From Bacteroidota bacterium (lineage in GTDB: Bacteria; Bacteroidota; Bacteroidia; AKYH767-A; OLB10), in assembly GCA_947453935.1 (NCBI GenBank), contig CANGJU010000003.1:1-58429 (forward strand): a stretch of DNA of 58,429 nucleotides, in the 5' to 3' direction. Below, one piece after another: positions 34,637-39,016 of the stretch. A program made the translations under genes and the position numbers. How positions within the stretch are numbered: the stretch's first letter is position 1; each line of letters begins with the position of its first letter. Below the pieces are notes generated by a model. It was not told the origin of the DNA and searched no databases. It saw only the letters and a program-made list of their open reading frames with translations.

Positions 34637-34987
34637 ATGAGAAAGCTAATTCTACTATTTGTTTTGTTATTAATTTTTAACAACACCCAAGCTCAAACCC
34701 AAGCTGAAATGAATCAGGCTGCTGCGAAAGGATATTATAAAGCCGATGCAGAGCTGAATAAGGTTTATAAAATTCTAATGTCGAAGCTAGATGAGAATGG
34801 AAAAAGCCTTTTAATCAAAGCAGAAAACGACTGGATTAAATATCGTGAATCACATTGTAAATTTGAAGCATCTTTTTACGAGGGTGGCAGTATGCAACCA
34901 ATGATTTATTCGAGTTGTTTAGAAAGTGTCACTATGGAGCGAATAAAAGAACTGAAAGAGGCGATTAAAGAGTTTGGTGAATATTGA
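34637..34987 (+). CDS. LprI (DUF1311) lysozyme-inhibitor family protein
   Basis: Signal peptide; AQTQAEMN, ADAELNKVY, WIKYRESHC, GGSMQPM...C....T.ERIKEL. Confidence 0.85.
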   Translation: MRKLILLFVLLLIFNNTQAQTQAEMNQAAAKGYYKADAELNKVYKILMSKLDENGKSLLIKAENDWIKYRESHCKFEASFYEGGSMQPMIYSSCLESVTMERIKELKEAIKEFGEY

Positions 34988-34990
34988 TTT

Positions 34991-35356
34991 ATGCTTAGAA
35001 CTATCTTCCGTATCGTAGCTGGCTCCTTATGGTATATAGGTCGTTTAACACATTTGACCTATAACGAGATTAACGTTGTAGTTTATTATTTTGTCATTCC
35101 GTACTCCTGGTTGTTAATGTTGGATGCTATTTTCGGATTTCACTACTGCGCTATTATTGGGGGTTTGTTTTATTTCTTGTTCTGGCTAGCGATTAAAAAT
35201 TTTAGAAGTTTTTGTGATGATGTATTTGATTTGTCGGAGCGCTTTTTAAACTCTTTTAATATCTACGGCAGTAATTATGTGGCAAGTTCAGTATGGATAT
35301 GCGTGGCTTTGCCTATATTGATTTATGGAGTGTTGATTTACTATCTGATTAAATAG
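34991..35356 (+). CDS. Hypothetical membrane protein
   Basis: Three hydrophobic segments; FCDDVF..S..FL....G.NYV..SV.ICV. Confidence 0.7.
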   Translation: MLRTIFRIVAGSLWYIGRLTHLTYNEINVVVYYFVIPYSWLLMLDAIFGFHYCAIIGGLFYFLFWLAIKNFRSFCDDVFDLSERFLNSFNIYGSNYVASSVWICVALPILIYGVLIYYLIK

Positions 35357-35492
35357 AAAACGTAATTTCTGCAAGCTTGCAGCTTTTTTGTGTAAGTGTT
35401 TACCCTGATTATTTTCGTCGTGTGAAAAATATTTTTAACGATATACAATGTCTTAATATTTTTTGCGTTCAGAAATTTCAAACCTAAAAAAC

Positions 35493-35837
35493 ATGATAAA
35501 AAAATTACTGTTATCGGCTACGGCGGTAGGACTTTTAATGACTATTTCCTGTAATCAATCTAATCCTGAAGTTTCAAAGAATATTAAGTGGCGGGCAAGA
35601 ACCATTAAAAAAAACAAATTGGTTTATGCATTTAATATTGATTCCTTACCGGTAAAAGCAGGCGATACAGTCTTGTTGAATTACAACAGTGAGTCGTTGG
35701 GTTATTATATAGCTAATGTAGCGTATCCTGTACGTGATACTGCTTATTTAGATACCTACGTCGATTCAAATGGGGTAGAGCAAAGCTATCATTATGAAGC
35801 AATCAATGTTGTTTTGTTGGATAATAGTGTCAGGTAG
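35493..35837 (+). CDS. Hypothetical lipoprotein (ATG at 35493 preferred)
   Basis: MIKKLLLSATAVGLLMTISC lipobox-like signal. Confidence 0.65.
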   Translation: MIKKLLLSATAVGLLMTISCNQSNPEVSKNIKWRARTIKKNKLVYAFNIDSLPVKAGDTVLLNYNSESLGYYIANVAYPVRDTAYLDTYVDSNGVEQSYHYEAINVVLLDNSVR

Positions 35838-35923: not shown

Positions 35924-36964
35924 ATGAAATATAGTTTACGAGAAAAATTAGAAAATATTATTCAAAATGAAGCTTTCAGTGATTCAGAAATCTCGCTTCG
36001 ATTAATTAATTTAATTAACCAATTAGATTTACATCAACCCGTTAAGAAGGAAGCGAAATCCATTAGTAATTTATATGAATCTACTTTATCAGAGGTTAAC
36101 ACTGACAAGCTGAATCATAATTATATTAAAAGTGGATTTACCACATTTGATAAGTCGATTCGAGGTTTTATACCTGGTGAATTTGTAGTGATTGGCGGAC
36201 GACCTGGAATGGGTAAGACACAGTTTGCAATTAATCTTGCAATAAATATTTCAAAAACGCATAAATCGCAATTTTACACCTATGATGATACTGAAGAAAG
36301 TATCATGAGGCGTATACTTTCTAATCTATGTCATATTCCAACATTCAAATTTGATTATAATGAGTTGTCGGATATTAACAAGGATATGATTAACAAGATT
36401 GGACCAATCGTTAATGAATTAAAATTACATGTTTCAGAATGTAATTACTTGAATTTTTTGGATTTCAAAGCTGACTTAATCAGGGATATAAAAGAGAAGG
36501 AACTAAAAGTAGTTTTCATCGATTTCTTGCAAGCCATTATTCCTTCGAAAACAAGATATAACCGCGAATTTGAAATTGGCTACGTATGTCGCGAGTTAAA
36601 AATGATTGCTAAAGAATTTAATGTTTGCATTATTACTACTTGCCAGTTAAGCAGAGCTGTTGAAACAAGAGGTTCTTCTAAACGTCCACAACTTTCAGAT
36701 TTAAGAGATAGTGGTTCCATAGAACAAGAAGCAGACAAAGTATTGATGTTGTATCGTCCGGAATATTATCAGCTGGAAACTTTAGAAGATGGAACAACTA
36801 CCAAAGGATTGATGGAAGTGATGGTAGTTAAAAATAGATGTGGAAAAATAGATTATATCCCTTTACGCTGTCTAATGGCAATTTGTCTGATACAAGATTA
36901 TAACTATTTCGAAGATGATTTTGATTTTGTGGAAAATCGTTTATTTGATCTTCCTGATTTTTAA
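35924..36964 (+). CDS. DnaB-like SF4 helicase C-terminal domain protein lacking the N-terminal domain; candidate retron partner
   Basis: H1 GGRPGMGKT, H2 FIDFLQ, H3 RELKMIAKE..CQLSRAVETR, H4 RPQLSDLRDSGSIEQEAD, KNRCG. Walker A lies at about residue 92. Confidence 0.9.
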   Translation: MKYSLREKLENIIQNEAFSDSEISLRLINLINQLDLHQPVKKEAKSISNLYESTLSEVNTDKLNHNYIKSGFTTFDKSIRGFIPGEFVVIGGRPGMGKTQFAINLAINISKTHKSQFYTYDDTEESIMRRILSNLCHIPTFKFDYNELSDINKDMINKIGPIVNELKLHVSECNYLNFLDFKADLIRDIKEKELKVVFIDFLQAIIPSKTRYNREFEIGYVCRELKMIAKEFNVCIITTCQLSRAVETRGSSKRPQLSDLRDSGSIEQEADKVLMLYRPEYYQLETLEDGTTTKGLMEVMVVKNRCGKIDYIPLRCLMAICLIQDYNYFEDDFDFVENRLFDLPDF

Positions 36965-36984
36965 TATATAAAAAATAAAAACCT

Positions 36985-37149
36985 AGAGCCGTTGCAATCA
37001 ACATTATGATGTCAACATATAGAGACATGGTGGTTGTGTTCCTGCAACCCGTGATCAGTTGGGTAAGGCTAATCGACTATTTATTTGTCGCTCGCTACGC
37101 TCACTCCTCATAAATAGTATCTGCAATCAAGATAATGGACAACGGCTCT
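36985..37149 (+). ncRNA. Putative retron msr-msd ncRNA
   Basis: Terminal inverted repeat agagccgttg (36985-36994) / caacggctct (37140-37149); stem-loop ggttg...caacc (37032-37049); hairpin actatttat/ataaatagt (37076-37118); ends 10 nt before the RT ATG. Confidence 0.8.
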
Positions 37150-37159
37150 TTTTAAATTT

Positions 37160-38317
37160 ATGAAACACAAAGAAAGAATAGATTTAATACTTCGTGAATA
37201 TCGCGATGAAGTCTGGCGTTTTAGTGACCTGGAGGAATGTTATAACTTTCTTAAGCAAAATCATATTGGAGCAAAAAGACATGAGATTAAATCGGCAATG
37301 CTTTTATCGATGAAGAAACATGTGGATATTGCTCGATTGATTTCTCACGACATTTTTGATTTAAAAGAGTTAGTTAATAATCCCGTTTACTCATCCTATA
37401 AGATTGGGAAAAAATCGGGTGGATTTCGTTTAATTGATAGTCCCGATGAAAAACTAAAAAAGGCGCATCGAAATTTAAATTCATTTTTGCAATCCTATTA
37501 TTTATGTATCAAGCCTGAGTCTGTCCATGGATTCGTGCCTGATTTTTACAGGATTCAAAGACGAATTAATATTGTTGAAAATGCAAAGCCACACGTAGGT
37601 AAAAAATATGTTTTAAATATCGACTTAAAAAATTTCTTTGATACCATATCAGCACAAAGGGTTTATCAGTTATTTATTGGAAAGCATTTTGACTATAACA
37701 AGTCGGTAGCAGCCGCATTAGTATTATTGGTTTCTTACAAGGGGAAACTGCCAACGGGCGCACCAACATCTCCTGTTATCTCCAATTTTATTTGTCTCGA
37801 ATTAGATCAATGTCTGATGGAGTTTTGTAAAACCTATAACTTGACTTATACTCGTTATGCGGATGACTTAACATTTTCGTCAGATCATGAAATTTCTGAT
37901 TTGTTATTGTTGATGATTAAAGAGATTATTCAGTTGAATGGATTTAAAGTGAACAATAAGAAAGTGAGAATAAAATCTAGTGCTCGTCAGCAGATGGTAA
38001 CAGGTTTAGTGGTAAATCAAAAAATAAATGTCGATAGAAAATTGATTAAGCAGGTGCGTGCAATGATTCATCATACCAAAGTAAATGGATTAACAGAAGC
38101 AACAAAAAAGCATTTTAGATTATCTGACGAAAAGGACGTGGGACCTTACAGAAAATTATTTCTTGATAAACTTGTAGGATTAATCAATTTTATTGGATTA
38201 ATCAGAGGAAAACTTGATGCTGTATTTTTAAAATTGGAAGATGATTTTTGTAGTCTTGAATTCAACAAGCCTACTATCAAGAATCCAGTGAATAACTATT
38301 ACAGTGTAGATTTTTAA
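37160..38317 (+). CDS. Retron-type reverse transcriptase
   Basis: KKSGGFRLIDSP, HGF, region X NAKPH (NAxxH), IDLKNFFDTI, LPTGAPTSPVISN, YTRYADDLTFS, region Y VTGLVVN. Confidence 0.93.
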   Translation: MKHKERIDLILREYRDEVWRFSDLEECYNFLKQNHIGAKRHEIKSAMLLSMKKHVDIARLISHDIFDLKELVNNPVYSSYKIGKKSGGFRLIDSPDEKLKKAHRNLNSFLQSYYLCIKPESVHGFVPDFYRIQRRINIVENAKPHVGKKYVLNIDLKNFFDTISAQRVYQLFIGKHFDYNKSVAAALVLLVSYKGKLPTGAPTSPVISNFICLELDQCLMEFCKTYNLTYTRYADDLTFSSDHEISDLLLLMIKEIIQLNGFKVNNKKVRIKSSARQQMVTGLVVNQKINVDRKLIKQVRAMIHHTKVNGLTEATKKHFRLSDEKDVGPYRKLFLDKLVGLINFIGLIRGKLDAVFLKLEDDFCSLEFNKPTIKNPVNNYYSVDF

Positions 38318-38329
38318 TTAATTTATTAA

Positions 38330-39016
38330 ATGAAAAAAGTAATTTTATTTTTAGTAGTAATTGCCTTAGCAGGAGGCGCAGTTTTTTATTTTAAATTTTA
38401 TAGGATTGATAAGAAGCCCAAAGTTGCACATAATGGATGTTGGGGTATAGACATATCACATTACCAAAAAAACATTAATTACGATAAACTAATTAAGGAG
38501 AATAAACCTGCTTATGTTTATTTAAAAACTTCACAAGGGAATTCTATGGTTGATGATCTATATGCGGATCGTTTGAAAAAATTCCGCGAATTAGGTATTC
38601 CAGTTGGGGGTTATCATTTTTTCAATTACAATGTGAGTGGTAAAGAGCAGGCGGAACATTATATAAAAACGGCTAATTTGCAAAAAGGCGATTTATATCC
38701 TGTGTTAGATGTGGAGATGAAACACAGTAGTTCCCAAAGTAAACAATGGATTGTAAGAGAAATAAAATCATTTTGTGTAGAAGTAAAAGCAGAGTATGGT
38801 GTGGAGCCACTTATATATTGTGAATACGATTACTACCATAAATATTTGAAGGATGATTTTGGTGATTACCAGTATTGGATTAGCGACTTTGTAAGAGCTC
38901 CTCGTTGTAAATATGTGATGTGGCAATACGATATTTTACATGTTAATGGAGTTGGGAGCATTGATAATAATCGTTTAGCTGAAGGTGTGAGGTTGGAGCA
39001 GCTTATTTTGAAATAA
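38330..39016 (+). CDS. GH25 muramidase (lysozyme) with N-terminal membrane anchor
   Basis: GIDISHYQ, GGYHFF, PVLDVE (DxE), PLIY, YWISD, MWQY. Confidence 0.9.
   Translation: MKKVILFLVVIALAGGAVFYFKFYRIDKKPKVAHNGCWGIDISHYQKNINYDKLIKENKPAYVYLKTSQGNSMVDDLYADRLKKFRELGIPVGGYHFFNYNVSGKEQAEHYIKTANLQKGDLYPVLDVEMKHSSSQSKQWIVREIKSFCVEVKAEYGVEPLIYCEYDYYHKYLKDDFGDYQYWISDFVRAPRCKYVMWQYDILHVNGVGSIDNNRLAEGVRLEQLILK

Follow-up and report, generated by a model that had tools for sequence, protein, structure and literature searches.

The 165-nt element at positions 36985-37149 of the DNA studied here is, as judged from its sequence and that of its homologs, a strongly conserved retron template RNA (msr-msd). 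Together with the two genes that flank it, it very probably makes up a three-part retron on the forward strand, consisting of a DnaB_C-like ATPase gene, the msr-msd noncoding RNA (ncRNA) and a reverse transcriptase (RT) gene. The DNA is a 58,429-nt stretch (the window) of contig CANGJU010000003.1 from a Bacteroidota bacterium with an assembly of 2.2 Mb (GCA_947453935.1). The element occupies the gap between the DnaB_C-only ATPase gene (35924-36964, +) and the RT gene (37160-38317, +), with the a1 arm beginning 20 nt past the DnaB_C stop codon and the RT ATG lying 11 nt past the end of a2. The first-pass annotation of this DNA had proposed that the gap is an msr-msd ncRNA, with a1/a2 arms and msr and msd hairpins directly upstream of a retron RT, and the comparison with homologous loci upheld this proposal. 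The features of the locus are collected in Table 1.

Table 1. Predicted features of the retron locus in the window, with the number of base pairs modelled, the number of these showing compensatory changes and the share of alignment cells that are paired.
Feature	Position	Strand	Pairs modelled	Compensatory pairs	Cells paired	Remarks
DnaB_C-only ATPase gene, 346 aa	35924..36964	+				Pfam DnaB_C 2.7e-63; putative effector
a1 core arm AGAGCCGUUG and C36995 (paired in most homologs)	36985..36995	+	10	10	97.8% (79 sequences)	Arm of the 10-bp repeat
Inner a1 extension AUUAU	37003..37007	+	6	2	95.6%	Pairs with 37132-37136; 3 pairs never vary, 1 varies on one side
Invariant unpaired G	37008..37008	+				Best branching (2'-OH priming) candidate; G in 79/79
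msr stem-loop 1 (SL1), AUGUC / GACAU	37009..37028	+	4	4	91.7%	
msr stem-loop 2 (SL2), GGUUGUGUUCCUGCAACC	37032..37049	+	6	2	100%	Nearly invariant
msr stem-loop 3 (SL3), weak	37050..37061	+	3	2	75.5%	Many G-U pairs; register varies in some homologs
Predicted msd template region	37064..37131	+				From retron geometry and G37131 next to a2; cDNA about 60-68 nt
msd hairpin	37075..37119	+	8	8	80.3%	9-bp stem 37076-84 / 37110-18 plus G37075:U37119
msd tip motif C-U-N-C-G (CUACG in the window)	37095..37099	+				c-G-N-A-g in cDNA
Invariant G37131 and AUAAU (inner a2 extension)	37131..37136	+				First template base here or at 37130
a2 core arm CAACGGCUCU	37140..37149	+				Followed by a U-run; RT ATG 11 nt later
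Retron RT gene, 385 aa, without fused effector domain	37160..38317	+				RVT_1 1e-20

The product of the ORF at 37160-38317 is, on its domain and motif content, a retron RT. Its Pfam content is RVT_1 alone (1e-20), with no protease and no fused C-terminal domain, and it carries the NAxxH motif of region X (NAKPH, residues 141-145), the VTG motif of region Y (residues 280-282) and YADD at residues 233-236. Among 24 RT homologs, residues N141, A142, H145, A234, D235, D236, V280, T281 and G282 are invariant and Y233 is nearly so (at least 90%). The best PADLOC matches were to the RT parts of the RT-Toprim_I-C (316 bits), RT-Protease_XI (312 bits) and RT-TIR_XII (285 bits) profiles, and only positions 6-326 of the 510 in the RT-Protease_XI profiles were matched. 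The best NCBIfam matches were all retron RTs, with none of the NCBIfam retron models reaching its own cut-off. Additionally, a protein search returned thousands of relatives with lengths of about 365-385 aa, and most of these were from Bacteroidota. An origin from a phage or plasmid was considered and rejected, the phage and plasmid collections searched containing no RT above 40% identity.

Homologous loci were collected from species-representative contigs, where a query with the single protein gave no matches but an alignment-based query succeeded. Scanning one genome per GTDB species in this manner identified at least 279 tblastn-confirmed RT loci, and 80 of these, with 44-75% identity, were kept (L001-L080). 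The 76 non-identical gaps were aligned with MAFFT (alignment A2), and this alignment was used to build a covariance model, R1. The core GCCGTTG ... CAACGGC was present in the 76 gaps with a span of about 145-185 nt. Invariant blocks in A2 comprised UUAUG (37004-08), most of the loop and stem bases of the hairpin GGUUGUGUUCCUGCAACC, and G-A-U-A-A (37131-35), the last being invariant or nearly so. R1 scored the window at 128 bits (E 7e-26) and found exactly one copy in the organism's own assembly. Across the collected loci, one copy of the element, about 170 nt in length, was found directly upstream of the RT and on the RT strand in all 79 that had room for the element, including three (L011, L044 and L079) that were outside the seed. 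Each of these 79 loci, down to about 44% RT identity, contained the terminal helix along with the GGUUG and msd hairpins. A search of Rfam at permissive thresholds over positions 36000-39000 yielded only chance-level miRNA and snoRNA matches and no retron families. The possibility that a conserved small peptide is encoded from ATG37006 (an ORF of 35 codons in the window) was also considered and rejected, as the homolog ORFs ranged from 3 to 100 codons in differing frames; since this ORF is not kept in the homologs, the region is taken to be non-coding.

The secondary structure was evaluated by covariation. Compensatory changes were seen at 28 of the 37 modelled pairs, and the observed values were reached in none of 500 shuffles. 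In the model-based alignment, 91.8% of cells were paired, compared with 29-51% when the 3' partners were slid by 1-3 columns. This alignment was fitted to a hand-written structure and leans towards it, but the a1/a2 helix and SL2 also hold on the unfitted MAFFT alignment. These two elements were the only ones recovered by an RNAalifold consensus on the MAFFT alignment, the hairpins of variable length having needed the hand-written structure and covariance-model realignment. At the level of thermodynamics, a 176-nt stretch containing the whole element folds better than its shuffles (z -2.5).

The two arms of the terminal helix, AGAGCCGTTG (36985-36994) and CAACGGCTCT (37140-37149), are perfect inverted repeats of 10 bp separated by 145 nt. 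Both the repeat and the C that follows G36994 (the TTGC context) are present as the first-pass annotation had described them. When the 195-nt gap was shuffled by mononucleotides, 15 of 1000 shuffles contained a perfect inverted repeat of 10 bp or more, so that the repeat alone is moderately unusual, yet not decisive; the decisive support comes from the comparison among homologs. Covariation of the repeat among homologs had been set beforehand as a test of the msr-msd proposal, and pairs changed on both sides were seen at 10/10 core positions on the plain MAFFT alignment. Variants of the core in which pairing is kept include GCUGUUG/CAACAGC, GUCGUUG/CAACGAC, ACCAUUG/CAAUGGU and GCCCUUG/CAAGGGC. 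The complete a1/a2 helix consists of the GC-rich 10-bp core and an invariant AUUAU/AUAAU helix, with an internal loop between them. Within this inner extension, UUAU/AUAA is invariant in 76/76 sequences, so that the four central pairs give no covariation support; the two outer pairs flanking it do covary (AU to CG, GC, UA or GU), and on this basis the second, inner a1/a2 segment is supported.

Two further observations concern the edges of this helix. A 16-nt direct repeat with 88% identity is found just inside a1 (TGCAATCAACATTATG, 36993-37008) and just before a2 (TGCAATCAAGATAATG, 37122-37137). It is shared with the nearest homolog, L001, while in the wider family conservation is confined to the 3' copy (UCAAAGAUAAU) and, within the 5' copy, to its UUAUG end; the repeat may be a lineage-specific duplication or a product of chance. 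Additionally, a2 is followed in nearly all homologs by a U-run (CUCUUUUUU or CUCAUUUUU; 37149-37159 in the window), and the RT start follows about 5-20 nt further on. Because the start codon lies this close to a2 and the U-run, formation of the a1/a2 helix could affect translation of the RT.

The helix encloses three msr hairpins. SL2 is paired throughout the homologs, and its near invariance in sequence makes it the likely recognition hairpin for the RT. A stem-loop had been placed at 37026-37053 by the first-pass annotation, and its GGTTG/CAACC core, in which the pairs run from 37032:37049 to 37037:37044, was recovered here. The outer part of that stem-loop did not hold: pairing between 37026-29 and 37050-53 persists in just 16-61 of 65-79 homologs and shows no covariation, and positions 37024-37028 form the 3' arm of SL1 instead.

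In the msd region, the 9-bp stem proposed previously is present, with ACTATTTAT (37076-37084) pairing with ATAAATAGT (37110-37118). The stem sequences vary widely among homologs and pairing is kept. In the window, the hairpin consists of 9 AU-rich pairs round a 25-nt loop; taken alone it is not stabler than its shuffles (z 0.12 as RNA and 0.36 as DNA) and it is missing from the minimum free energy fold of the single sequence, so single-sequence thermodynamics is uninformative for this hairpin. The apical region, by comparison with the stem, is conserved in sequence and reads roughly GCUCACU-N-CGUUCCGC. Within the C-U-N-C-G motif, the columns are C in 69/71, U in 70/71, a free N (G in 31, U in 23, C in 9 and A in 8), C in 66/71 and G in 71/71 sequences. 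As a result, the tip of the cDNA reads c-G-N-A-g in about 90% of the homologs that have the tip segment.

On the cDNA strand, c-G-N-A-g amounts to a GNA triloop closed by a C:G pair, and d(GNA) triloops are stable as DNA mini-hairpins. Selection for a DNA mini-hairpin would be expected to leave such a pattern, a C:G-closed GNA with a free N. The first-pass annotation had noted GAGCGTAGCGAG within the reverse complement of the msd tip, where it is indeed found, and had argued that the hairpin is tuned for the DNA copy. The retention of c-G-N-A-g with its free N agrees with this argument, but the full GC-GNA-GC form cannot be generalized: beyond the window only a minority of homologs have it, most reading AC-GNA-GT instead, and the tip of L001 reads GCTCAGC. 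A conserved msd tip is unusual among retrons, and its presence here suggests that a protein reads it, either as RNA or as DNA.

A mostly Flavobacterium-type subgroup of loci (L039, L041, L043, L055, L059, L060, L062, L070 and L073) was observed to have a longer SL1 loop. In the same loci, the msd is a short simple hairpin with a stem of 8-12 bp and a loop of 3-7 nt, and it lacks the GCUCACUNCGUUCCGC tip. This subgroup provides a natural comparison for the function of the tip.

The gene upstream of the ncRNA encodes a protein that matches the RecA-fold Pfam domain DnaB_C (2.7e-63) and lacks the N-terminal DnaB domain. Of the 80 loci, 78 have a DnaB_C-only homolog as the gene immediately preceding the RT in the same orientation, and the two loci without this neighbour are both cut by contig ends. 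The gap from the DnaB_C gene to the RT start is roughly 150-250 nt in nearly all loci. From its conserved linkage, we designate this ATPase the putative effector of the retron. Its Walker A motif is intact, and Walker B, QLSR and the LRDSGxIEQxAD region are also retained. Where DnaB has its catalytic Glu (in SLEMS), the family has a conserved Asp. In the window protein, the segment at residues ~118-124 (about 36275-36295) was observed to read Y-T-Y-D-D-T, compared with F-S-L-E-M-S in DnaB and a family consensus of F-S-F-D-L-S.

The C-terminus of the window protein (36908-36961) was observed to have an acidic tail and a terminal aromatic residue (...FDLPDF). The last residue is F in 58 of 74 homologs, in 49 of them as part of a terminal -PF, and the final 10 residues contain 3 acidic ones on average; an R-L-x-E-[IL] motif is conserved just before the acidic tail. 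The C-terminal tip of bacterial SSB consists of acidic residues followed by IPF, and the tail of the DnaB_C-like proteins resembles it.

Other neighbouring genes were compared across the 80 loci. A GH25 muramidase gene (38330-39016) is located directly downstream of the RT in the window, and a gene for the lysozyme inhibitor LprI (34637-34987) is located upstream of the retron cassette. GH25 was rejected as a retron component, given that it is a neighbour in only 2/80 loci; beyond the window it adjoins the RT in L002 (71% identity) and, weakly, in L014, and nowhere else. The cassette may have been inserted between or beside a lysozyme/inhibitor pair. Two small ORFs upstream of the DnaB_C-like gene, at 34991-35356 (121 aa) and 35463-35837 (124 aa), had no matches in Pfam, NCBIfam or PHROGs; they are kept with the DnaB_C-like gene in the closest locus, L001 (78% and 85% identity), and in no other.

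A scan of the gap identified no sigma-70-like promoters and no terminator-like sites, and the Bacteroidota TAnnTTTG box occurs upstream of a1 in 10/76 sequences, which is about background and shows no enrichment; a dedicated promoter for the ncRNA was thus looked for in these two ways and none was found. Given the empty gap and the 20 nt between the DnaB_C stop codon and a1, the simplest arrangement is co-transcription, and the DnaB_C-like gene, the ncRNA and the RT gene are most likely transcribed as one operon.

Altogether, these observations are consistent with a working model of the system. The ends of the RNA would be paired by the two-part a1/a2 helix, enclosing the three msr hairpins and the single msd hairpin, and the RT would recognise the nearly invariant SL2 hairpin GGUUGUGUUCCUGCAACC. 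DNA synthesis would be primed from the 2'-OH of the invariant unpaired G37008. Copying of the template would start at about 37130/37131 and proceed leftwards across the msd hairpin, and the resulting msDNA would be about 60-68 nt long, with the conserved c-GNA-g mini-hairpin at its tip. By analogy with characterised retrons, the msDNA-RT complex may then restrain the DnaB-like ATPase until it is disturbed by phage infection.

The choice of priming base in this model departs from the first-pass annotation, which had assigned priming to G36994. We consider G37008 to be probably the branching G. It is unpaired and G in all 79 homologs, it lies 14 nt downstream of G36994, at the point where the extended a1/a2 helix ends on its inner side, and it is opposite G37131, which is itself invariant in 80/80 loci (G/G in all). 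In Ec86, the branching G likewise faces an unpaired G next to a2. If G36994 were the branching base of the same ncRNA, the msDNA would start from 37139 and would include the AGAUAA motif. This version draws on the presence of G at that position in 78/79 homologs, on a perfect helix that ends exactly at G36994 in the window and 15 homologs, and on the length of the core, 10-13 bp being typical of a1/a2. However, G36994 is Watson-Crick paired in every homolog, it is replaced by an A compensated by U in L075, and 63 of the 79 homologs have 1-3 further pairs beyond it, so that the helix does not end there in these sequences. It appears to behave as an ordinary helix position, and we regard its use for priming as unlikely, with the remaining probability assigned to neither G. 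G37008 is favoured because it is invariant, unpaired and at the helix end, whereas G36994 is paired, covarying and inside the helix; in published retron geometry, a conserved priming guanosine is adjacent to the inverted repeats (PMC8989520, PMC7736814).

Two other explanations differ from the msr-msd model more broadly. The RNA might be bound by the RT without abundant msDNA being made in uninfected cells, either because reverse transcription is conditional or because the RNA serves mainly as a scaffold or translational regulator. The a2 arm and the U-run directly precede the RT start codon (11 nt from the end of a2 to the ATG), which would suit such a role, and msDNA synthesis in the lineage described by Toro (2026; PMC13712802) is stated there as unproven. 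Moreover, some retrons, those of type VI, are reported to be without constitutive msDNA (bioRxiv 10.1101/2025.10.22.683967), and on that precedent constitutive msDNA cannot be assumed. Against this explanation, the layout is that of a classical msr-msd part for part, with a1/a2, a helix-end G, msr hairpins and a covarying msd hairpin; all catalytic motifs are kept in the RT; and the conserved msd tip with its free N in GNA is more readily accounted for if the DNA copy is important. Altogether we give this explanation a small chance of being correct. A chance inverted repeat, or an intergenic terminator or attenuator unlinked to the RT, could account for a repeat of a length reached in 1.5% of shuffles and for the U-run after a2, but the 145-nt loop between the arms is not the geometry of a terminator, the terminator scan of the gap found none, and conservation of the whole covarying element in 79/79 loci, down to about 44% RT identity, effectively refutes it, leaving it a negligible probability.

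Within the preferred msr-msd model, the msDNA may also be more than a passive antitoxin. As a speculative and improbable joint reading of the tip and the ATPase, the conserved c-GNA-g DNA mini-hairpin tip and its flanks would be read sequence-specifically by a DnaB-like ring ATPase with an SSB-like -PF tail, and the two together would act as a decoy of a replication-fork or SSB-coated single-stranded DNA complex, sensing phage replication or SSB-targeting proteins. If this were true, the sequence of a retron msd would itself be selected for recognition by the effector, and the effector would work via replisome mimicry and not as a nuclease or NADase.

A literature search combining retrons and DnaB returned, as directly relevant work, a study by N. 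Toro (mSystems 2026; PMC13712802) and its preprint (10.64898/2026.05.14.725207). That computational study describes TXI_noncan_h, a protease-less type XI-like retron lineage of 29 RT loci in Bacillota and Bacteroidota, in which DnaB_C proteins are adjacent in 69% and a covarying upstream ncRNA has an a1/a2-like motif, with msDNA synthesis still to be shown (PMC13712802). The present locus shares with it an RT that retains NAxxH and VTG but is not fused to a protease, a DnaB_C-only protein encoded no more than two genes away (here at offset -1), membership in Bacteroidota and, as matched by description, a conserved ncRNA that covaries, carries a1/a2-like repeats and lies a short distance upstream of the RT. 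The locus thus matches a new member of this recently predicted TXI_noncan_h-like lineage, an assignment made by description, the PADLOC I-C, XI and XII profiles being near-tied (316/312/285 bits).

There are also differences. In the published set, DnaB_C is at offset +1 in 14/20 and -1 in 5/20 loci, values that are possibly not strand-normalised, whereas here it is upstream on the same strand in 78/78. The published RNA is a compact double stem-loop of 23 pairs located 22-104 nt upstream. The 37-pair model obtained here, by contrast, combines a two-part a1/a2 with three msr hairpins and one msd hairpin, and 11 nt separate its end from the ATG. Additionally, the family is far larger here than the 29 loci of that study.

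Compared with canonical type XI retrons, in which a clade 8 RT is fused to a trypsin-like protease and which were described as without a recognisable ncRNA (Mestre et al. 2020, PMC7736814), the RT is similar in that its RT-Protease_XI score almost equals that of the best profile, RT-Toprim_I-C, but the 385-aa protein has RVT_1 only, with no protease domain, and is accompanied by a clear ncRNA. The locus shares with Ec86 (Eco1) and Ec67 the a1/a2 arms, the conserved G at the inner helix end, the msr and msd hairpins and the location of the ncRNA directly upstream of the RT. It differs from them in that the a1/a2 helix is broken by an internal loop and in that the msd has a short stem with a large, sequence-conserved loop, whereas classical retrons have long stable msd stems. 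Furthermore, the gene upstream of the ncRNA encodes a DnaB-like ATPase and not a nucleoside deoxyribosyltransferase-like protein, a Toprim protein or another known effector.

Type XI and related groups were among the few retrons without a recognised ncRNA until the study of Toro (2026). The 79 homologs considered here provide a base-resolved ncRNA model, with a two-part helix, G37008, a nearly invariant hairpin that the RT probably recognises, an msd stem free to vary and a conserved tip, and this makes the DnaB_C-associated lineage directly testable. For engineering of single-stranded DNA producers, the msd stem likely tolerates replacement, and the tip and the AGAUAA motif likely do not. The module occurs commonly in Bacteroidota, GTDB species representatives having yielded at least 279 tblastn-confirmed matches. 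What it does is therefore relevant to the biology of phages and their hosts in gut, freshwater and soil communities.
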